A DNA stretch of 64,000 nucleotides from Escherichia phage EC.W2-6, in sequence record PP445229.1, one strand, 5' to 3'. The translations under genes and the position numbers were made by a program. Below are positions 18,846 through 62,991 of this stretch, piece by piece (position 1 is the first letter of the stretch; every line of letters begins with the position of its first letter). Below the pieces are notes generated by a model that worked only from the letters and a program-made list of their open reading frames with translations, was not told where the DNA came from and did not search any database.

Positions 18846-19323
18846 AGAACCTGTAGTACATAAAGATTCTATCAGAGATCAATATAATGAGATGTTAAAG
18901 AAACAAGCTGATTCTAATCTTCGTTATCAGAGGATAGTAGAACAATCTAACTTTAAAGGTTTACTTGAATGGTAACTTATATCCTTTACTTTTTAGCTTT
19001 CTTAGGAATAGTCTTTTTATCTATTCTTATTGAATTTGGTTTAAGTAAGTTAGTTAATTATTTAGGTAATAAGTAATTAATATTCTTTTAAATAGAGAAT
19101 CAAAGTCCCTAGGAGTCCCTACAACCTAAATCAAGGATTCCTTAATTCTCTATTTTTATCTCGCAGGTGGCTCCTGCCCTTCGGTACTTGCAAGGGATTC
19201 TGTGAATTGCCCAATATACAAGCCTGCAATAACTTTATCAGCTATACAATATATACATTACTAGTGTGATATATCTACTACCAAAGATACTTATATTATA
19301 TAGTACTCTTATCGGTATAAGCG

Positions 19324-19332
19324 TAATGTATA
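19324..19332 (+). promoter_or_regulatory. TAATGTATA element (candidate phage-sigma-dependent promoter)
   Basis: Exact 9-mer about 60 nt upstream of the putative SSB gene; mirrored by an inverted copy at about 19255. Confidence 0.45.
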
Positions 19333-19391
19333 CTATACATAACCGCTCAAAGAGAGCAACAATCTTTCAAATTAAATAAGGAAATTAAAAT

Positions 19392-20138: not shown

Positions 20139-20160
20139 TAACTCTCCTTGTTATAGCTTA

Positions 20161-20182
20161 GCCACCTCCGGGTGGCTTTTTT
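20161..20182 (+). terminator. rho-independent terminator
   Basis: GCCACC-TCCG-GGTGGC hairpin followed by TTTTTT, directly after the putative SSB gene. Confidence 0.65.
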
Positions 20183-20195
20183 CGTTGGAGACAAC

Positions 20196-20546
20196 ATGCA
20201 AAACACATTAAGTGATAACTTAGGGTTTATCGTTTTCTCAGCTCTTGTATTCTTTGGTGGTATGAAGTTTAACGAATATCAAACAGACAGCAGTAATCTG
20301 GACAAAGAGAAGCACCAGCAAGAGTTAGAGATTGAAAGAAGTAGAGCAGCTGATGAAGTTGCTCAGAGAGTTCTTACCGGTTTATCTAACTGGAAGAAGA
20401 ACACAGAAACCGTTTATAAAGAGATGCATTATGAGAAAACTAAACCAGTTTTTTATGATGTCTGCGCTAGTGATGACTATGTCCGCATGTTCAATGATCG
20501 ACAGCAGCAGGCAATCAATGCCCTTACCAACAAACCTAAAAGCTGA
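20196..20546 (+). CDS. putative i-spanin (Rz-like)
   Basis: N-terminal TM helix (LGFIVFSALVFFGGM) followed by charged coiled-coil-like periplasmic region; contains an overlapping lipoprotein ORF in another frame. Confidence 0.5.
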   Translation: MQNTLSDNLGFIVFSALVFFGGMKFNEYQTDSSNLDKEKHQQELEIERSRAADEVAQRVLTGLSNWKKNTETVYKEMHYEKTKPVFYDVCASDDYVRMFNDRQQQAINALTNKPKS

Positions 20547-20690
20547 ATGCAGGGTTGACTTACCTTTTTTAGAGAGTGCTCAAGGAAAAGCACTAGCCAC
20601 TACGTTGGAGTGGTATCAGGACCAGTACACAGAATGTGCTGCCAATCACAATGGATTGTTAGAAGCTCTGAAAGAGCGTGGAATAGAATA

Positions 20691-20691
<1 letters not shown>
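20431..20691 (+). CDS. putative o-spanin (Rz1-like lipoprotein), overlapping the i-spanin gene
   Basis: Signal peptide MRKLNQFFMMSALVMTMSAC with lipobox-like MSAC; Pro-containing mature part; overlapped architecture. Confidence 0.45.
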
Positions 20692-22183
<1,492 letters not shown>

Positions 22184-33253: not shown

Positions 33254-34036
33254 TTACTTTACACCAATGCTAGCCAGACGTCTGAGCACTGCTTGTGTTT
33301 GTGGACTGTACTGAGAACCTGCTGCATGTGGTGCACTTGCCCTCTGAACTGTTTGAGAAGTGGGAGGTTTACCAGCAAGCATAGCAGCTACCCCTAATAC
33401 TGCATTACCAAAGTTCTGTTGAGGTTTCTGATTTTCGCCTTCCTGCACTTCATCAGAGTAAAACTCTACTGGATTTCCACCTAAAGCACCTGTCTTAGAA
33501 GCAGCAATCTCTGCCTGAGTTGGAGCTTGTGCGGCCTTCTCTCTATCTAACAAGTCAGGACTAAACTGATTGACTGGTTGAACAGCTTGCAAAGCTCCAA
33601 CAGGGTTAGCAATCTGAGAAGCTGCATCACCATAGAAAGGAAGAAAGTGTTTATTGTTCATGGAGTCAAGAGCTTGTGGAGTAAACCCCTTTTTACCAGC
33701 GAACATTTGCTTAGCTCCACCGATACCTTCTGAATAACCAACCATTGCTTTCTTAACATCACCATTAAAAGCTTTTAAGTTATCTCTTATGTAACGAGCG
33801 CCCATATCAATATTCTTTGCTGGGTCAAGTCTATCTTCTAGTTTGTAACCGTAATCTTTAGCCAACCCTTTACTGATCTGCATTAAACCTACAGGACCAG
33901 TTCCAGAGGCCACTGTAGGACGACCACTGGACTCTCTTTGGATGACAGCATGAATCAAAGCAGCAGGAATCCCATACTTCTTTGAAGCTTGCTGTACCAT
34001 TGGGTCTAGTTCTTCGATACCCATTCTGATTGCCAT
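33254..34036 (-). CDS. virion-associated lytic transglycosylase (SLT domain)
   Basis: IQRESSGRP ... GPVGLMQIS ... AYNGG-like SLT motifs (ES, GLMQ). Confidence 0.7.
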   Translation of the reverse strand: MAIRMGIEELDPMVQQASKKYGIPAALIHAVIQRESSGRPTVASGTGPVGLMQISKGLAKDYGYKLEDRLDPAKNIDMGARYIRDNLKAFNGDVKKAMVGYSEGIGGAKQMFAGKKGFTPQALDSMNNKHFLPFYGDAASQIANPVGALQAVQPVNQFSPDLLDREKAAQAPTQAEIAASKTGALGGNPVEFYSDEVQEGENQKPQQNFGNAVLGVAAMLAGKPPTSQTVQRASAPHAAGSQYSPQTQAVLRRLASIGVK

Positions 34037-35081: not shown

Positions 35082-36116
35082 TTACCAACTCCCTATTCTT
35101 ATGCGAAGAGTTCCACTCCCATCATAAAAATCTATTCTATTACCATTCATCCACAACTGAGAACCACCTGTACCACCCATAACAAAATCACCACCAACAG
35201 TAAGTCTCCAGTTAGAACCCCACATAGAACCAGCAGTGATTTTATCCGCTGATAAGTTCTGAATCTGAGCATTGGAGATAGATACGTTATCAATCTGTGC
35301 CCATTGGATCCTAGCGTTGGCAATCTGAGCAGTTGTGATGTTGACGTTCTTTATGTCAGCGAATTCCATCCTAGCTCGCCCACCCTCAAATACGAAGGGG
35401 GTATTCCCAGAGCTGCCATCACCAACAATAAATTTGTTAGCTGTTACTTGGAATTGACTGTTTGTTCCGTTGTTAGTTAACTTGACCCCAGCATATCTTC
35501 CGTTGACTGTAGAGTTAACACCCCACGTAGCTTCATACTCAGAGAGTTTCATATACTGAGAAAGGCTTCCGTTGATATTTTGCAGTTCTGTCTGAACAAG
35601 AGCAATCTCTTGACCTTGATCGTTAACAATACCTTCTACTGTCTGAATTTTAGTTGTGTTACCTTCGATGCTGGTCTTAAAACCAGATACAGTGCTTTCT
35701 AGCTTCACAGGGGGTTGAACAGAATTATCCCAAATGTCCTCAGTGGACAGGTTCCCCATCTGGGTTTGGATATCTGCAATAGCTGTTTCTATCTCTGTAG
35801 TAATTCTATTCTCAAGCTCATCAAATTGTAGATTCATTGCATTAAGAGCTTTAATACGAACATCAATCTCTTCGTGAATTTCATCTATAGCTTGGAACAT
35901 TTGGTTAGTAGCTGTGCTAACTTTTTGTAATTCATCATACACGGCTACGTTATATGTTTCTGTGTCCTGTACATTATTGAGAAACCCAACGTTGTACGGG
36001 AGTGTGGTGTTGTTGCGACCAGTGTTCTTACGAAAACCACCTGCACCCATAAGTTCCTCCAAAACAATAAAAGGGGCACGAAGCCCCTTGTTGTTATCTC
36101 CGCCCGCCAACAGCAA
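35082..36116 (-). CDS. tail fibre-like protein (344 aa)
   Basis: N-terminal coiled coil then repetitive ANARIQWAQIDNVSISNAQIQNL segment. Confidence 0.4.
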   Translation of the reverse strand: MLLAGGDNNKGLRAPFIVLEELMGAGGFRKNTGRNNTTLPYNVGFLNNVQDTETYNVAVYDELQKVSTATNQMFQAIDEIHEEIDVRIKALNAMNLQFDELENRITTEIETAIADIQTQMGNLSTEDIWDNSVQPPVKLESTVSGFKTSIEGNTTKIQTVEGIVNDQGQEIALVQTELQNINGSLSQYMKLSEYEATWGVNSTVNGRYAGVKLTNNGTNSQFQVTANKFIVGDGSSGNTPFVFEGGRARMEFADIKNVNITTAQIANARIQWAQIDNVSISNAQIQNLSADKITAGSMWGSNWRLTVGGDFVMGGTGGSQLWMNGNRIDFYDGSGTLRIRIGSW

Positions 36117-39111
36117 ACTCTATCGTTAAACCATTGATAGCAGCATTACTATTAACATCATTATCTATAACATTATAGAAAAGGTATGGATGGTTCAGTC
36201 TCACCGAGACATGCCTGTCAACACCGATCGTATATGTCTTAGATGTGTGTGGGTGTCCATATTCATTTGAGAATTGACTACCACCAGCTTCAAATATGTA
36301 AGTACCTGAACCAGTTGTCTGAGGTCGGAACCTGTTAATATGCTTCTGATTCCACTCATTCGTCACATTATCAAAATCTATACCAGTCCTCTCCAACCTC
36401 ATTTCCAGAGGCTTCTCTATAACAACATCATTTAGCCTGTCATAGAAGTAATCAAGAGCACCTACATCCACTTGATAGAATCCCTTCAAGAATGAACCTA
36501 CTATCGTAACCCTCTGTCTAAAGTTTGTTGCATCCTTTCTCCAAACGAGTTCTTTAATAGATGGGTCATCCCAAGTGATTTCTTGGAAGTCAGACCAGAT
36601 TGGACCTCTTTCTAAAACAGGAGGATCAACCAGACCAATACACTGAGCATATGGGATAGTACGGAATGACCAAGTATCAAACTCGTAGTTCCATACAGCA
36701 GCTTTAGTACAAGCGAAGCTTTCTTTTGGCTCTCCCGGACCTACGTACAGAACCCAAACTTCTTTCTTATCCTGATGCAAATGCACTCGAGTTGCTAGAG
36801 GGTTAACCAGACATACCTCGTTAATCAGCATATTCTTAACACGGTTAGATGCAATTGACTTCTTAGTTGCACCGTTGTGTAAGATTACATCGTTCTGAGT
36901 AACTACGAAGTGACTACCTTCTACTTCAACCACACACTCAGGAGCAAGGATACCAGAGTCGTTAAAGAGCTTCTTGAACATTAGAGGTTGGTACGTGTTA
37001 TTAGTCGGAGAACCAATATACGTTTCAAACTCTGTATAAACGAACAAGTAATCTTTAAGAGGTAGGATATCAATCAAGCTACCATTAGAATCTGCTAAGT
37101 CAATGTAACCAGCATACCCATTCTCTAGAGCCTGAGTCTGCCCTACGATGTTAGAAGCTAAGTCCGAAGACACAACTCGATCATAGGCAAAGTCATCCCA
37201 CAGTGTAGGAGCCTTGTTCTCATTGGCAAAGTTAGACCAACGAAGACGAAGCGGGTAGTTAGTGGTAACACCAGAAGCATTAGCCTCTCTCATATTCAGA
37301 GCAAAAAGACGGTTGTTAAAAGATCTTACTCTCTCACATTTCCAGTTAAACTTCTTGACTGAAGGGTTTCCATCACTATCCACCACTGTTTGCTCACCCC
37401 ACCCCGGAAGGTCTACAAAGTATTCTGATTCGAATTCTTTTACCTGAGGAGTTTCATAGTGAGTTGTAGCAACTGCACAGTTAGAGATAACAGCGTGATA
37501 CCAAGGGTAGTCATCAAAAGCATCGTAATCCTTCTGAGTCATCTGACTGACAGTACATGTTACGTTAATCTCTCCTTTACGAAGAGCAACCAGTTTGATA
37601 GATTTACCAGTGACTGAAGTTGTAGAAACATAACCAGTTTTATCAACAGACCACTGATAAGAGTACTCACCTTCTGGAGAAGCTGTGGCTGTAATGACAA
37701 CCTCTTCACCAACATCAAGAGAAGCGCTGACAATATCTAAGGTTACAGATGACAAAGGGGTTGCCAGTAAAGAAGCTCTTGCAAAACCTTCAATGTCATT
37801 CACGTTAGAGTAGTCATAGAAGTTATTACCTTCGTACATCCCTGACGTATCAATACCGGATGTAGGCTCAGCAAAATAAACCGTCTCTTCACTTTCAGGA
37901 GGAGTTACTACTTCTTCCTCTTGAGTTTCTACTGACTCTGACACAGGAGCAGCAAATGCCATAGAACTTGTTCTCATTGTTCTTCCAGCTAAATCTACAC
38001 GTACAGTACAGACAGCAACCCTGTTGCCTTCTTCAGTGGTAGCTGTAATCTCAGTAAAGCCAGCAAGTAAAGCGTTGATCGTCCCTTGTGTGCTAGTCCC
38101 TGATACTGTTGCAATATTTGGATTAGAAGAGGTCCAAGTAATATTTTGATTAGGGGCGTTAGCAGGAGAAAGGGTAGCAGTTAAGATATACTGAGAACCT
38201 CTACTCACAATAACATCTGACTGGCTTAAAGAGATACTATCAATCTGAGGGATGGAAACAACCTCACAAGAAGCAGTCTTAGTTCCGTTATCAGCAGTGA
38301 TTGTTACATTACCTTCTCCATTCGCTGTAATGACAGCAGTTAAAGAATTGGCGTTAGGGGTTACGGATACAATAGAAGCGTTATTGCTGGACCAAGTTAC
38401 AGGAGTCTTGCCAGTAACAGCCGTGAGAGTAGTAGTCCCTCCTTTACGAATTGTAACAGTGTCTTGACTCAAGAAGATGCCTGAATCACCGTCGATGATA
38501 TTAACAGCAATCTGAGCCACTACGGATTCGTTGGCAGTAGAGATAGTTACTACAAGATTACCTTCTTTCTCAAAAGATGTTAGAGTAGCAAGTTTAGAGT
38601 CACTAGGGTCTACCGTAATACTTCCATAGGATGAGTTACTAACCTCCCAAATAAGATCAGTATTGTTAGCATCAGCAGGGAGAAGAGAAACCTCTAGATT
38701 CTTGGTCTGATTGAAGTTCATTGAGATAGTTGATTCTTTAGGAACGATCTGAGAAACAACTGGATAAATCTTAATTGAGGCAGAAGCCTTCTTAGTGACT
38801 GTAGCAACCTTACGGCTAATATCAGTCAAGCTTTCATCTGTCAGTTTATATAACTTCTTATCCGTACCTACAACAAGAAAGCTATTACCTGCGCTATAAT
38901 AATCGAAAGGCATAGAAACGAAAGACAGAGGGGTTAAATCCTTATCTTCATCTACATAAGAAAGAGGGGCATTGCCCCCCGTCTTAAATACTCTCTGCTC
39001 AACAAATCGAGCATTTATAGCATTAGTGAAAGCATTAGGAGCTAAGTCTGTCGGAGCCTGATCAGCGATAATGCCTACAGCACCTAGTGACTTTATTGGA
39101 TACAGCGCCAT
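36094..39111 (-). CDS. large tail protein with Ig-like (BIG2-type) domains
   Basis: Several ~80-aa Thr/Ser/Val-rich repeats resembling bacterial Ig-like domains in the N-terminal third. Confidence 0.45.
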   Translation of the reverse strand: MALYPIKSLGAVGIIADQAPTDLAPNAFTNAINARFVEQRVFKTGGNAPLSYVDEDKDLTPLSFVSMPFDYYSAGNSFLVVGTDKKLYKLTDESLTDISRKVATVTKKASASIKIYPVVSQIVPKESTISMNFNQTKNLEVSLLPADANNTDLIWEVSNSSYGSITVDPSDSKLATLTSFEKEGNLVVTISTANESVVAQIAVNIIDGDSGIFLSQDTVTIRKGGTTTLTAVTGKTPVTWSSNNASIVSVTPNANSLTAVITANGEGNVTITADNGTKTASCEVVSIPQIDSISLSQSDVIVSRGSQYILTATLSPANAPNQNITWTSSNPNIATVSGTSTQGTINALLAGFTEITATTEEGNRVAVCTVRVDLAGRTMRTSSMAFAAPVSESVETQEEEVVTPPESEETVYFAEPTSGIDTSGMYEGNNFYDYSNVNDIEGFARASLLATPLSSVTLDIVSASLDVGEEVVITATASPEGEYSYQWSVDKTGYVSTTSVTGKSIKLVALRKGEINVTCTVSQMTQKDYDAFDDYPWYHAVISNCAVATTHYETPQVKEFESEYFVDLPGWGEQTVVDSDGNPSVKKFNWKCERVRSFNNRLFALNMREANASGVTTNYPLRLRWSNFANENKAPTLWDDFAYDRVVSSDLASNIVGQTQALENGYAGYIDLADSNGSLIDILPLKDYLFVYTEFETYIGSPTNNTYQPLMFKKLFNDSGILAPECVVEVEGSHFVVTQNDVILHNGATKKSIASNRVKNMLINEVCLVNPLATRVHLHQDKKEVWVLYVGPGEPKESFACTKAAVWNYEFDTWSFRTIPYAQCIGLVDPPVLERGPIWSDFQEITWDDPSIKELVWRKDATNFRQRVTIVGSFLKGFYQVDVGALDYFYDRLNDVVIEKPLEMRLERTGIDFDNVTNEWNQKHINRFRPQTTGSGTYIFEAGGSQFSNEYGHPHTSKTYTIGVDRHVSVRLNHPYLFYNVIDNDVNSNAAINGLTIEFAVGGRR

Positions 39112-39120
39112 AATTCCTCC

Positions 39121-39924
39121 TTAGCTAATACGTCTCCAAATGTGAGCTGCTCTGAATGGTGGCAAAGTGTTAATAGGTTGACGAGAGATATCATCACGAC
39201 CAAGACTTACACTACCAGAGATTGTATGAGTGTGAGTATCATTATCAGTTCTCTGACTGTATCCACCACCCGGACTATACCAGTTTGGCGAGCTGTTATG
39301 ACCACTAGCATCTCCACGACCAAATACCATGTTGTGACTGTGAGTATTACTGGATAGAGAGAAGCTGGAGCCATTAACTGTCATCAAAGGTACGTTCTCA
39401 GTTCGAATAGTATTGAAGACACGACCACCAGTACCACCTGCTTGGAACTCAACTCTCTGAGCATTAGGGACAGAACCATCAGGGTTTACTACACCAGTAC
39501 CCATGATAACACCAGTCACTTTAGCCCAAGAGCCAAACCCTAAGGAGATGGAATCACCGGGGTTAATATCTTCTTCAGTGATGTAGTAAGAACCAATTCG
39601 ATAGAGCTTATTCTCCATCCAGTTCTTCATGAACGCTTCCATCTGGCCTTTAGTAACAACATCCTTGTCACCAGTTCCCGGAGTAACGTTCTTGATCATA
39701 AGACCACCAACATCCATTGAATCACCAGTAAACTTGAGCTTCTCTGACATAATCTTAAAGGTGTCAGAATCTATATCAACTGGTTCTGTAACATTGGGGA
39801 ATGTGTTCTGTAACGTTTGTTTAATGAGGCGGATTTGAGCCGCCCCTTCGTAGATGTAATCCCTGTCTCTAGGATAGAGCGGGTTTAAGTCGGTAATAAC
39901 TACCGCATTAGTTTCGATAGCCAA
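39121..39924 (-). CDS. tail fibre / receptor-binding-like protein (267 aa)
   Basis: Position between large tail gene and endolysin; Gly-rich beta composition. Confidence 0.35.
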   Translation of the reverse strand: MAIETNAVVITDLNPLYPRDRDYIYEGAAQIRLIKQTLQNTFPNVTEPVDIDSDTFKIMSEKLKFTGDSMDVGGLMIKNVTPGTGDKDVVTKGQMEAFMKNWMENKLYRIGSYYITEEDINPGDSISLGFGSWAKVTGVIMGTGVVNPDGSVPNAQRVEFQAGGTGGRVFNTIRTENVPLMTVNGSSFSLSSNTHSHNMVFGRGDASGHNSSPNWYSPGGGYSQRTDNDTHTHTISGSVSLGRDDISRQPINTLPPFRAAHIWRRIS

Positions 39925-39936
39925 AAGGCACCTCCA

Positions 39937-40428
39937 TTAATATTTACCTTCGGTGTAAAGATTAGCTTCTGCAACTCTTCTATTATGAAGACCCTGACTT
40001 CTCTGCTTCTCTCCCTTGACCGTTATTTTATCCCAACGAAGAAATTCGGAATAAACATCCCCCTTAACATCTCCATTGATTACCTTCCTTAACTTAGATG
40101 TGCTCAAAGCCCCACTGCCAACATTGAAGTTGAAAGAAGTGAGTGCATCAAACTCATGAACTAGTAAAGGAACCTTTATGTTCTTCTGAGTAGCACGAAC
40201 AGAGTCTTGTGTGTCTCTATCTAGCAGAGCTAGACAATCCTCTATAGAATACGTTAATCCTTGTCTAACCGGATAACCATTCATATCGCGCGTAGCCCCT
40301 ACACATATAGTCCAGATACCTGCGGAATCTTTATAAGCCTTGGTTCTCATACCCTCATGCTTCATGATGAATTCCATTCCAGCTGGGCTTAAGTTTAATT
40401 GTACAGGTGGCAATGCGGCGTTATCCAT
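39937..40428 (-). CDS. endolysin, T4-lysozyme-like (GH24)
   Basis: FIMKHEGMRTKAYKDSAGIWTICVGAT matches the catalytic E ... D ... T region of phage lysozymes. Confidence 0.8.
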   Translation of the reverse strand: MDNAALPPVQLNLSPAGMEFIMKHEGMRTKAYKDSAGIWTICVGATRDMNGYPVRQGLTYSIEDCLALLDRDTQDSVRATQKNIKVPLLVHEFDALTSFNFNVGSGALSTSKLRKVINGDVKGDVYSEFLRWDKITVKGEKQRSQGLHNRRVAEANLYTEGKY

Positions 40429-40457
40429 TTCTAACCTCCTTTTGTAGTCCCTTTAAA

Positions 40458-40676
40458 TTAAGGTAGTATCTTTCTCAGAGCGTTAGATTCAGCATCAGGG
40501 CAAATAACAACTAAGTTATTTTGAATTGTTCTCTGCTTGCATTGAGAGCTAAGCTTCTCTACTGGAGCAGGGACAGTTACTAATGGATGAACTGCGCCTA
40601 CAGGAACTGCGGTGGATACCACAACACCTGCGCCTAAACATATTAAACCATATGCAGCTTGTTTCATCATTTTCAT
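40458..40676 (-). CDS. small secreted protein (72 aa)
   Basis: N-terminal signal-peptide-like hydrophobic segment; two Cys in mature part. Confidence 0.4.
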   Translation of the reverse strand: MKMMKQAAYGLICLGAGVVVSTAVPVGAVHPLVTVPAPVEKLSSQCKQRTIQNNLVVICPDAESNALRKILP

Positions 40677-40742
40677 TTGAGTGTCTCCTATATATTAACC
40701 TCTTGGGATATAGTAGTTTCATTACTTATTCACCAGTTTTAC

Positions 40743-40766
40743 TCCTAAAAGCCCCCGAAGGGGCTT
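40743..40766 (-). terminator. rho-independent terminator (minus strand)
   Basis: GCCCC-CGAA-GGGGC hairpin with T-run in minus-strand sense, after the tail fibre gene. Confidence 0.5.
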
Positions 40767-40769
40767 ATC

Positions 40770-42938
40770 TCACTTCTCTGCTAACTTCGCTTCTAGAACT
40801 TCAATACGCTTCAGCAGATCTTGAACAACCTGCATGGTATCTAAAAGCATTGGAGTTGCATCCAACTCTTTCTGTTCCTGCTCTACCCCATCGTTGTCAT
40901 GGAATTTACGAGTTTTAACATAAAGAGGTTCAACTTTCTCTGCCTGCTGTGCAATGATACCACGACGAGTTCTTCCTTGATTATCATTGTTGTACACAAA
41001 CGATTTGAAATCCAAACCTTTTATCGCACGAATTGCTTCATCAGGAGAGATATCTTGGATGTTATGTTTCAACTTTTCATCAGATACAGGATTCATAGCA
41101 AGAGTATAAGTTCCGGTTGAACTTGGCTGCCAAGTGTAGTAGTAAATCTCGTTCCTGTTTGGTCGGAGAGTTAAACGACAACCATATTTGTTGTCTTCAT
41201 CTCCCGAAACATGCCAACAGGAATCAGCAAAAGATCCAGCATCATTGTGAATCATCCCTACATGGGTAGTAGTTTTGTATCCACCTTGGGATGCTTGGGA
41301 AGCACTCAGTATAGAGTTAAAAGAGTAGTTAGCACCAACCCCTTGGTTGTCTATAGAAAACGTCCCTCTGCGACTTCCTGTTTCACTCCAAGACATCAAT
41401 GTTCTAGACCGAGCAACATATCTATCAGAGTTCAGGGTTCCAGAATCGTCAAAAGCTAATTGCTTGGTAACTCCTTTGGTTTTATTATAAACATTGATAA
41501 TCCCATAATAAGCTCCGTCGATATAAGCATCAGTTTGGAGCGTAGTAGAGGCTTCTACTTCTGAACCTATTTTATATTCAGAAACAACTGAACCGCTAGT
41601 TACCCTAGTTCCACCAGCAGGACGGTTTGCATCACTGTTAATAACTGACCAAGAGGTGTTAGCAGCAGTAAAACCTCCATGAGCACGAATAGTCCAAACA
41701 CCTACAAAGTTACGGGTCAGAATCTCCTCAGTGGAGCGACCATAAATAGGACTGGAACGCGATGCGTCAAAGTTTGTGGATATGTATTTACCTCCAGCCC
41801 CCACTGGAGCCACATCGTCTGTAGAGGTGATTGATTGAATTGCCCCGTTAGTCGCCACCTGCCCCGGAGCGGAGGCTAGTGTTACCATTGTGTGAGGGGA
41901 CGCATATGTGATATTCGGTGCAGCAGAATCAAACACTTGGCCATTTGCAGCAGAATTACCACCATCACCACGGCCATATAAAGCTCTCAGTGACCCCTCT
42001 TGGATACCATTTCGGTCAGGAACACGGAAAGTTGTTGTACCATTTCCGGTAGAATACCTACCCCTCTGATAGATATTAGACAACCAAAGAGAGTCTTCAA
42101 TTGGGGATAGCAGTTGTGCATAAGCCCATAAATCTGGGTAGTCAGCACGATTCAAAAGCTGCCCATCCGACACAACCTCAAAAGCTGGGATGAAAGCTCG
42201 ACTGTCACGTAAATGGAAATCACCAATACCAAAGTTAGAGATACCGCTCATCGTAGGACCACCAGAGCCACCACCACTGTTTCGAAGCTGTCTCAAAGTA
42301 ACCGCATCATAATCACCAACTGCATCAGGGACAGTTACTGGTTGAGTGAAAGTAACTTTCTGTGTGAGCTGTTTGATATCAGAGTTAATCCCTGTACGAG
42401 TAACACCTACCGTACGACCTTTAGAGTCTTTAACATAAGAACCAATTGCAGCAAAAGGCAAATCCTCAATCTCAGGACGGTAACGTTTAGAATAAACTGG
42501 ATACTTAGTTTCTACCCCAGAGTCATTCTGGTCAACAACCTGAAGACGACCAGCAGAATGAATCTCTACACCTTGAACTGAAGAGGCATAACTACCAATC
42601 TTGATTGAGTTATCAGTAGTAACTTTCATCATATCAACTGATTCTACACCATTAGCTCCAGTAGAACGGAATGGGGTATCATTAACAACCCAAGGGTCTT
42701 CTCGGAACAGCGCACCAGACATAATAGGTTGAATCGAATCCAGCACAAAATCTTTAGATGCACCCTCTGTTTTAGTTTGATAGGTAGCAGCTGCGTCGGT
42801 TTTCTGTAAATATTTTCCGGTGAGGTTAATAGCTCCAGTCTGTCCATCTACAGTAGAAACCCCAACAACAGCCGCGTCTCTGGTTACAACCACATGAGGC
42901 ATCATTATACCAGATTTGGGCATTAATTCTCTAGACAT
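40770..42938 (-). CDS. tail fibre / tail spike with C-terminal intramolecular chaperone (peptidase S74-like) domain
   Basis: C-terminal SDEKLKHNIQDISPDEAIRAIKGLDFKSF ... GIIAQQAE matches the self-cleaving chaperone domain of endosialidase/L-shaped tail fibres as I recall it. Confidence 0.6.
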   Translation of the reverse strand: MSRELMPKSGIMMPHVVVTRDAAVVGVSTVDGQTGAINLTGKYLQKTDAAATYQTKTEGASKDFVLDSIQPIMSGALFREDPWVVNDTPFRSTGANGVESVDMMKVTTDNSIKIGSYASSVQGVEIHSAGRLQVVDQNDSGVETKYPVYSKRYRPEIEDLPFAAIGSYVKDSKGRTVGVTRTGINSDIKQLTQKVTFTQPVTVPDAVGDYDAVTLRQLRNSGGGSGGPTMSGISNFGIGDFHLRDSRAFIPAFEVVSDGQLLNRADYPDLWAYAQLLSPIEDSLWLSNIYQRGRYSTGNGTTTFRVPDRNGIQEGSLRALYGRGDGGNSAANGQVFDSAAPNITYASPHTMVTLASAPGQVATNGAIQSITSTDDVAPVGAGGKYISTNFDASRSSPIYGRSTEEILTRNFVGVWTIRAHGGFTAANTSWSVINSDANRPAGGTRVTSGSVVSEYKIGSEVEASTTLQTDAYIDGAYYGIINVYNKTKGVTKQLAFDDSGTLNSDRYVARSRTLMSWSETGSRRGTFSIDNQGVGANYSFNSILSASQASQGGYKTTTHVGMIHNDAGSFADSCWHVSGDEDNKYGCRLTLRPNRNEIYYYTWQPSSTGTYTLAMNPVSDEKLKHNIQDISPDEAIRAIKGLDFKSFVYNNDNQGRTRRGIIAQQAEKVEPLYVKTRKFHDNDGVEQEQKELDATPMLLDTMQVVQDLLKRIEVLEAKLAEK

Positions 42939-46332: not shown

Positions 46333-46341
46333 TATACATTA
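46333..46341 (-). promoter_or_regulatory. TAATGTATA element on minus strand (candidate phage-sigma-dependent late promoter)
   Basis: Exact 9-mer about 34 nt upstream of the 46299 start, just after the capsid terminator. Confidence 0.45.
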
Positions 46342-57408: not shown

Positions 57409-57786
57409 GTGATTATTATCATGGGTATTATCAAATTTGTAGTAAAAGTATTCGTGGGCTTCTTCCTTGTCGTTCTCCTGCTGGGTGTGCTCCTATCGGC
57501 TATGGGTAGCGTTAAGGCTGCAACATTCTCCCCTGCTACGGTGGAAGGTTTACAGTGCACCTATTTGATAGAAAATTATGATACCGGTAAAAAGTCACCT
57601 AAAGTTATTATTTTGCATGTAAATGATTTCGATCATGTGCAATCAGATAGTAAAACTATTCTACTGGTAAATGAAACTACTGGTAAACAAATCACGGTCG
57701 ATCACTTGATGCGCTCATCGTTAACGCTCTTTGATGAGTCCATGAATGAAATGGCATCCGGTAATGGTCAATGTGTAAATCCATAG
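57409..57786 (+). CDS. membrane-anchored/secreted protein (125 aa)
   Basis: N-terminal hydrophobic segment (IIKFVVKVFVGFFLVVLLLGVLLSAMG); two Cys in extracytoplasmic part; terminator downstream. Confidence 0.45.
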   Translation: MIIIMGIIKFVVKVFVGFFLVVLLLGVLLSAMGSVKAATFSPATVEGLQCTYLIENYDTGKKSPKVIILHVNDFDHVQSDSKTILLVNETTGKQITVDHLMRSSLTLFDESMNEMASGNGQCVNP

Positions 57787-62694: not shown

Positions 62695-62991
62695 ATGACT
62701 TTAGAAGTATATAAATTCCTTTTTGTAAGCTGTTTAACTATCAGCGTTCTAGGATTTATTGTTCTAAGAAACAAAGCAGCAAGCTGGGAAAGAATGTATA
62801 AATCCCTAGTCCGAGTGGATGAGATGTATAATGAGAAGGTTAAAGTAACACTCAACGATCTTATTATGCAAGTTGAGGACAGAAACAAGCGTCTTCAGAA
62901 CCTCAATCACGAAGTGTTACGCCTTGCTCGTGCTAATGAAGACTTGCGAATAGCTATTGCTAAGCAGCAGGAGATTAACAGTGATAATTGA
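62695..62991 (+). CDS. membrane protein with N-terminal TM helix and coiled coil (98 aa)
   Basis: FLFVSCLTISVLGFIVL hydrophobic segment followed by heptad-rich helix. Confidence 0.45.
   Translation: MTLEVYKFLFVSCLTISVLGFIVLRNKAASWERMYKSLVRVDEMYNEKVKVTLNDLIMQVEDRNKRLQNLNHEVLRLARANEDLRIAIAKQQEINSDN

Follow-up and report, generated by a model that had tools for sequence, protein, structure and literature searches.

A putative three-step lysis system divided between two transcription units in a phiEco32-like Escherichia phage

The lysis genes of the phiEco32-like kuraviruses have been placed on the genome in several published descriptions. The papers on SU10, YF01, and Privateer report a holin-endolysin pair inside the morphogenesis module (PMC9965538, PMC7881722, and PMC4281155 for the layout), and the related C3 phages 7-11 and GAP52 are described as missing both genes of that pair (PMC4281155). 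The phiEco32 spanins are catalogued as an overlapped two-component pair, with the i-spanin in the JH2 overlapped family and the o-spanin group also listed (PMC6139136). In phiEco32, the holin-endolysin pair is represented by gp16 and gp17, the latter named a “lysis protein,” and in SU10 by gp14 and gp15; in both phages the spanins are encoded in the same middle operon as the sigma factor.

Scattered lysis genes are equally familiar from T4 and T7, and the dispersed layout reported below is, as found, of little importance. In T7, the holin gene 17.5 lies between the tail fiber gene 17 and the terminase gene 18, the amidase gene 3.5 is located elsewhere, and the spanin genes are 18.5 and 18.7. 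The T4 lysis genes e, t, and rI and the T4 spanin genes are likewise dispersed, and the N terminus of the RI protein is a signal-peptide-like SAR anchor.

Here we describe the lysis genes in a window of 64,000 nucleotides from Escherichia phage EC.W2-6 (PP445229.1). Their layout is the standard, published phiEco32-like Kuravirus arrangement and was already known. With a probability of roughly 0.8, we read them as a three-step phiEco32-like lysis system that is split over two transcription units and in which the lysozyme is the lysis enzyme and not a part of the virion.

Arrangement of the lysis genes and their promoters

The genome is laid out in two convergent arms, with the middle genes on the plus strand up to approximately 24.97 kb and the late morphogenesis genes on the minus strand, starting at approximately 54.8 kb and ending at 25.04 kb. 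Over 4 kb around the endolysin locus, the sequence matches that of Escherichia phage EC.W8-1 (PQ030848.1; Kuravirus, Gordonclarkvirinae) at 100% identity, and the same slice shows 84 to 94% identity to many other phiEco32-like podoviruses and kuraviruses. The endolysin locus on the minus strand and the spanin locus on the plus strand are about 19.5 to 20 kb apart and are transcribed from convergent strands. An earlier note on this DNA had proposed a dispersed lysis system with the endolysin embedded in the tail gene block, and our analysis bears out both points: the endolysin gene and the gene for a 72-residue protein belong to the late tail block, the spanin genes belong to a middle operon, and the lysozyme, of the GH24 type and with its coordinates correctly given, lies between the genes for the distal long tail fiber protein and the short tail fiber.

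The tail genes on the two sides are readily assigned. The upstream neighbor (40770..42938, minus strand) is the homologue of SU10 gp13, the distal protein of the long tail fiber, as indicated by phrog_6921 (5.8e-285), a Peptidase_S74 match, and the SU10 structure. The downstream neighbor (39121..39924, minus strand) is the homologue of SU10 gp16, the short tail fiber (PF21939 Gp10_C, 3.6e-10; phrog_6465, 8.1e-114; SU10 structure), and its TTG start lies 12 nt past the endolysin stop. The nozzle protein (36094-39111) was assigned by homology to the SU10 cryo-EM model. Within this block, the gene for the 72-residue protein and the endolysin gene form one tight unit; the 29-bp spacer between them (40429..40457, minus strand) provides the endolysin with a strong Shine-Dalgarno sequence, AAGGAGG, and is kept in SU10, SU7, and Bas87.

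These flanking tail genes and their order are identical to those around gp16/gp17 of phiEco32 and gp14/gp15 of SU10, and the spanins share a middle operon with the sigma factor, as they do in those phages. SU10 has an HNH endonuclease gene before the spanins that is missing here, but otherwise there is essentially no difference between the two. The likeness to T7 is of a more general kind and consists of a small single-transmembrane holin of about 70 residues (a putative one in the present case) encoded in a late structural operon beside a tail fiber gene, together with dispersed lysis genes. T7 differs in that its holin and endolysin genes are apart and its spanin genes are near the holin gene, whereas here the holin candidate adjoins the endolysin and the spanins are remote. 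Furthermore, T7 uses an amidase as its endolysin in place of a GH24 enzyme, and the 72-residue protein has no sequence relation to the T7 holin.

Both transcription units can be connected with the promoter motif of gp36, the phage sigma factor. A motif search located an exact copy, TAATGTATA, upstream of the spanin operon (19324..19332, plus strand), which, by the SU10 paper and the SU10 gene order, corresponds to the middle promoter that SU10 and phiEco32 have between CDS38 and CDS37. A further exact copy of TAATGTATA lies between the Ig-like and adaptor genes (46333..46341, minus strand), with a terminator at 46396-46373 ahead of it; this copy corresponds to the late promoter between CDS10 and CDS11 in SU10 (PMC4281155), and no other described late promoter lies closer on the upstream side of the tail and lysis genes. 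We also considered a gp36-type promoter belonging to the 72-residue gene itself, for which TAATATATA at 40689-40697 was the candidate, with one mismatch. That sequence is not conserved in SU7 or Bas87, and motifs with one mismatch are not enriched in the window (22 found versus 19 expected from shuffled sequences); we therefore claim no promoter for this gene.

Each lysis locus sits directly behind a terminator-like hairpin, and the two hairpins are possible attenuators. The one at the spanin locus, found in a terminator scan, is followed by a T-run and ends 19 nt before the i-spanin start (20160..20177, plus strand). The other (40747..40766, minus strand) lies past the stop of the long tail fiber gene and upstream of the 72-residue gene, and has the sequence GCCCC-TTCG-GGGGC followed by TTTT. 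It is conserved in four kuraviruses, but since its fold of -13.3 kcal/mol is no better than that of shuffled sequences (z-score, -1.24), we call it only terminator-like.

The endolysin and its site of action

The endolysin gene (39937..40428, minus strand) encodes a soluble GH24 muramidase of the T4/P22 type with 163 residues, equivalent to phiEco32 gp17 and 98% identical to SU10 gp15. The match to PF00959 (Phage_lysozyme) spans profile positions 2 to 125 of 125, with an E value of 3.7e-32 and a score of 111.7 bits against a cutoff of 22.3, and the match to the endolysin family phrog_7 has a value of 3.8e-46. Among proteins in the PDB, the closest solved relatives are the endolysins 8app (1.2e-27) and 7m5i (4.3e-25), and the matches also include P21 R, P22 gp19, and RrrD. 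The catalytic triad, Glu-x8-Asp/Cys-x5-Thr, is present as E25, D34, and T40 and is aligned with those of 8app and 7m5i. The protein consists of the catalytic domain alone, lacking an attachment domain, and a hydropathy analysis detected neither a SAR domain nor a signal peptide.

Two other views of this enzyme have to be weighed, and both concern where it acts. In a SAR-endolysin/pinholin system, the enzyme would export itself by means of an N-terminal SAR domain and would need only the depolarization of the membrane. The label “SAR-endolysin” is attached to the protein in the MN03 record (MT129653), the same is stated for ZCEC16 (PMC13417854), and the E-x8-D-x5-T triad is one that P21-type SAR endolysins share. 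The sequence, however, contradicts these labels. The first 24 residues, MDNAALPPVQLNLSPAGMEFIMKH, hold Asp2 and Glu19 in addition to Q10, N12, and three prolines, and the highest Kyte-Doolittle average over 19 residues is 0.82, compared to a threshold of 1.6. The N terminus aligns instead with helix 1 of soluble endolysins such as 7m5i, and it is even more polar in the divergent L013 homologue. We regard self-export as very improbable. Because of the polar N terminus, the low hydropathy, and the alignment with soluble endolysins, we consider the enzyme to be cytoplasmic, and since it is soluble and has no export signal, it should need a hole-forming partner for its passage through the inner membrane.

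The second view, put forward in the earlier note, is that the lysozyme is carried in the virion and used at infection rather than as an endolysin. All that speaks for it is the position of the gene between tail fiber genes. The SU10 data argue strongly in the other direction: the proteome, obtained from a PEG-only preparation that yielded nonstructural proteins as well, includes the neighboring gp11, gp12, gp13, gp16, gp17, and gp18 at 40 to 75% coverage but neither gp14 nor gp15, and the cryo-EM model of the virion, with its portal, adaptor, long and short fibers, nozzle, needle, and ejection proteins, has no gp15 either. Entry is moreover provided for by a separate enzyme. The gene at 33254..34036 (minus strand) encodes an ejection protein with an SLT lytic transglycosylase domain (PF01464, 1.2e-23; phrog_12507, 3.1e-176); its SU10 homologue, gp20, was found in virions and has been assigned to the degradation of peptidoglycan at entry. 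This ejection protein is the virion-borne wall hydrolase. With a bare 163-residue catalytic domain whose nearest solved relatives are endolysins, a virion location for the lysozyme is hardly credible, and we continue to treat it as the endolysin.

The 72-residue protein upstream of the endolysin

The gene directly preceding the endolysin gene (40458..40676, minus strand), at a distance of 29 bp, encodes the protein known as gp16 in phiEco32 and gp14 in SU10. It is 100% identical to phi32_16 (gp16) of phiEco32, a “putative holin,” and to SU10_014, and it matches PHROG 11161 over its full length (2.8e-50); the “holin” name of that PHROG derives from these same phages. The holin label is carried throughout the Gordonclarkvirinae, in SU7 and the BASEL phages among many others, and in phage Paul it takes the form “holin class III,” based only on BLAST similarity to phiEco32. 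BLAST matches to the “putative holin” of phiEco32 are the source of all of these labels. In phage MN03, the gene was left as “hypothetical” by its CPT annotators.

The earlier note stated that no typical holin flanks the endolysin, and this statement does not stand, as the adjoining open reading frame is the field's annotated holin (phrog_11161; 100% identical to phiEco32 gp16) and the SU10, YF01, and Privateer papers all describe a holin-endolysin pair. The same note had named an adjacent canonical holin as the finding that would count against it. The neighbor is indeed annotated as a holin, but it is not a canonical one and its label is putative. Calling it a signal-peptide protein, as the note did, is defensible as a description, given the V/T-x-A motif and the SignalP report on a homologue discussed below, but it passed over the fact that this is the gene annotated as the holin.

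The gene is closely tied to these phages and to the lysozyme. By tblastn, it is present in all 98 of the phage records that match the region, and a GH24 lysozyme always follows directly downstream in all of the relatives examined. The pairing holds in the most divergent relatives, which come from metagenomes, despite different tail fiber genes upstream. The protein is also the only annotated small protein of the late strand with a hydrophobic segment, and an off-frame scan for hidden or embedded holin genes, covering the late strand and the surroundings of the spanin genes, returned only Leu-rich open reading frames within large genes, none of them convincing.

Beyond these phages the family appears to have no relatives. 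A word-indexed search of 5.8 billion proteins gave 23 family matches, one of them a partial sequence of 54 residues and the others 69 to 72 residues long, and a profile searched exhaustively against 1.84 billion representatives added just two more real members. Two long repetitive matches and one match limited to the N terminus, which might have been taken as distant homologues, were judged to be spurious. Searches of Pfam (with all 24 members), NCBIfam, and the PDB detected no relative of the family and no homology to a characterized holin. The family thus appears, as far as sequence searches reach, to be an orphan confined to these phages. No experiment in support of a holin role, such as a demonstration of lethal holes that can be triggered by energy poisons and let the endolysin out, was found in the literature searched.

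The protein is made up of three parts: a single N-terminal hydrophobic segment (residues 7 to 29; Kyte-Doolittle value, 2.15), a linker of variable sequence, and a C-terminal domain that is almost unchanged across the family and contains Cys46 and Cys59. Mean pairwise identity in the family is 63% for the hydrophobic segment, 49% for the linker, and 84% for the C-terminal domain. The two cysteines are invariant and flank a predicted beta-hairpin; the AlphaFold2 model computed from the family alignment has a helix at residues 3 to 23 and the hairpin at residues 47 to 58, with a mean pLDDT of 55, and is thus of low confidence. The C-terminal 33 residues are hydrophilic, with five basic and three acidic residues, and from the invariant pair of cysteines and the lysines at the N terminus, we infer that this domain is periplasmic. 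The protein has hardly any cytoplasmic portion and lacks the charged cytoplasmic tail that is normal for holins, which speaks against the holin label. A lambda S-type dual start from the sequence MKMMK was considered and rejected, since the second Met is not conserved.

The hydrophobic segment itself has features that pull in two directions. Gly, Ala, Ser, and Thr make up 39 to 52% of it across the family, and Y9, G10, C13, and G17 (Y-G-x-x-C-x-x-x-G) are invariant even at 40% overall identity. This pattern suggests a role for the segment beyond targeting and hints at helix-helix packing. At its end, the segment has an invariant V/T26-x-A28 with a variable residue at -2, resembling the -3/-1 signature of signal peptidase I, and a 2026 study of ZCEC16 (PMC13417854) reported that SignalP 6.0 and DeepTMHMM, applied to a homologue, predict a signal peptide some 30 residues long and no transmembrane domain. 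We read the protein as a borderline case, in which the segment could be a signal peptide that is cleaved off or a signal anchor that stays in place.

If the segment is cleaved after Ala28 following Sec-dependent export, the product would be a 44-residue disulfide-stapled peptide in the periplasm, and the protein would not be a holin. Such a peptide might regulate lysis timing or act as an antiholin, as T4 RI does, or it might bind or inhibit a wall hydrolase. In addition to the invariant V/T-x-A that closes the hydrophobic segment and the published predictions on the homologue, this reading accommodates the fact that conservation is highest in the C-terminal domain, with its two invariant cysteines around the predicted hairpin, and it is in keeping with the “hypothetical” label chosen for MN03. 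The true holin would then have to be sought among the other small membrane proteins of the genome, namely, a 59-residue protein or an 85-residue multi-transmembrane protein (66773-67030), or in an unrecognized gene. The 59-residue protein (9106..9285, plus strand; phrog_9296, function not assigned) does have the two hydrophobic segments that the earlier note ascribed to it, as judged by hydropathy, but it makes a weak candidate: it has no charged C-terminal tail, its gene lies in the middle region amid genes of nucleotide metabolism, and it occurs in 73 phage records, compared to 98 for the 72-residue gene.

Against this reading, the endolysin, being soluble, depends on a holin, and the 72-residue protein is the best candidate for that role. 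The invariant Y-G-x-x-C-x-x-x-G would also be unexpected in a disposable signal peptide, and the stretch of some 19 to 22 uncharged residues before the putative cleavage site appears to have the length of a signal anchor. Signal anchors typically have a hydrophobic region of that length; those of cleaved signal peptides are shorter as a rule. T4 RI offers a precedent, in that its N terminus was first read as a signal peptide and is actually an uncleaved SAR anchor. On balance, we consider the secreted peptide a possible but doubtful explanation. The protein as a holin, with the topology proposed here, has in our estimate about an even chance, given the endolysin's need for a holin and the want of any other protein that qualifies.

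In the proposed arrangement, the protein would resemble T4 T and RI in an N-in/C-out orientation, a single N-terminal hydrophobic segment, and a periplasmic domain with cysteines. It differs from T in scale, as T has 218 residues and a large periplasmic domain, compared to about 43 periplasmic residues here under the proposed topology. Homology to T4 T or RI was not detected in the Pfam and PDB searches, and the class III assignment does not hold for this protein.

Spanins and the proposed course of lysis

The spanin genes confirm the Rz/Rz1-like pair that had been noted at 20196-20691 on the plus strand. The i-spanin (20196..20546, plus strand; phrog_1152, 5.5e-37) has an N-terminal transmembrane segment (hydrophobic residues 9 to 25) and a periplasmic helical domain, and is 95% identical to SU10_035. 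The o-spanin (20431..20691, plus strand) is an 86-residue lipoprotein that matches phrog_2425 over its full length (1e-25); translation from the ATG at 20431 gives MRKLNQFFMMSALVMTMSAC, with the lipobox MSAC and the lipoprotein cysteine at position 20. The start of its gene falls within the i-spanin gene, in a different frame, and its end lies 145 nt past that of the i-spanin gene, so that the pair has the overlapped architecture. In the sequence record of the phage, the o-spanin is truncated.

The same i-spanin and o-spanin architecture is found in other overlapped spanins, i.e., those of the P2 LysB/LysC type and of the JH2 and phiEco32 families (Kongari et al. 2018). The present pair differs from other overlapped spanins in that it is unlinked to the holin and endolysin genes and is located in a middle operon, beside the genes for a macro-domain protein and the phage sigma factor.

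Taken together with the promoters, these assignments outline the following course of events. The spanin genes, in the middle operon of the plus strand, would depend on gp36 as the late block does and would probably be transcribed earlier than that block. The muramidase would accumulate in the cytoplasm, dependent on a hole-former for crossing the inner membrane. The 72-residue protein would insert into that membrane with its N terminus inside and its C terminus outside, by means of its single hydrophobic segment, and would expose to the periplasm a small C-terminal domain stapled by a disulfide. When infection comes to its end, it would form lethal holes, with a topology like that of class III holins in a very small protein. 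Once the wall has been degraded, the spanins would fuse the inner and outer membranes.

In approximately 100 phage genomes, the label “holin” rests on a single positional guess made in 2008, and the label “SAR-endolysin” in the same family is contradicted by the sequence. Kuraviruses are under development for therapy and biocontrol, and the timing of lysis hangs on the putative 72-residue holin. If the peptide is secreted, the Kuravirus holin would lie elsewhere, or the peptide would be an effector or regulator of lysis of a new kind. If the uncleaved form makes the holes, these proteins would be holins of a new, minimal family whose transmembrane domain resembles a signal peptide.

Gene starts and record labels

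Read from the ATG at 20431, the o-spanin gene (20431-20691, plus strand) encodes an 86-aa lipoprotein that matches phrog_2425 end to end, an entry that is labelled 'unknown function' in PHROG. The GenBank record of EC.W8-1, PQ030848.1, sets the start at 20518 for a product of 57 aa, and with this annotated start the protein loses its lipobox cysteine along with the signal sequence; SU10_034, the counterpart in the closely related kuravirus SU10, is truncated in the same way. The 163-aa lysozyme (39937-40428, minus strand) is labelled 'SAR-endolysin' in phage MN03 (L014 1438-1929), and the ZCEC16 paper (PMC13417854) describes it as a SAR endolysin that carries a signal peptide. That identity is contradicted by the hydropathy of the protein and by its alignment to soluble endolysins.

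Three other labels in PQ030848.1, all on plus-strand genes, look wrong. The 'integrase' (8482-9045) belongs to the Dps/ferritin-like DNA-binding proteins (PF00210; phrog_3636), and the 'terminase' (57421-57786; 121 aa) and 'DNA helicase' (62695-62991; 98 aa) are both small proteins with strongly hydrophobic N termini, the latter having a helical tail and a type II, i-spanin-like topology.

Putative membrane proteins of the early region

Two more proteins are encoded beyond the window, in this genome's early region: one of 99 aa that resembles a lipoprotein, with the lipobox LTGC (record 65802-66101; L006 20803-21102), and one of 85 aa that has two or three hydrophobic segments (record 66773-67030; L006 21774-22031). 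These two proteins could act in superinfection exclusion or, as a remote possibility, be holin candidates.

Promoters, hairpins, and the spanin junction

In the gene-free interval at 18976-19391 (416 bp), the promoter motif TAATGTATA of gp36, the phage sigma factor, occurs four times across the two strands; two of the copies are exact, and the other two each have one mismatch. There are minus-strand copies at 19243-19260, one at 19324 on the plus strand, and one at 19334 on the minus strand. Only the plus-strand copy matches a described promoter. A near-consensus sigma-70 promoter (21103-21132, plus strand; TGGACA, 18-nt spacer, TATAAT) lies immediately 5' of the phage sigma factor gene (21154-21798) and corresponds to the promoter described for CDS32 of SU10.

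In SU10, an HNH homing endonuclease (L016 5006-5419) is inserted with the CDS37 homologue on one side and the i-spanin gene on the other; EC.W8-1 lacks it, and the junction upstream of the spanins is thus an insertion hot spot. Immediately upstream of each lysis locus is a GC-rich hairpin with a T-run behind it, at 20160-20177 (plus strand) for the spanins and at 40747-40766 (minus strand) for the 72-aa gene and endolysin. These hairpins may attenuate read-through, holding the dosage of the lysis genes low relative to that of the genes upstream.
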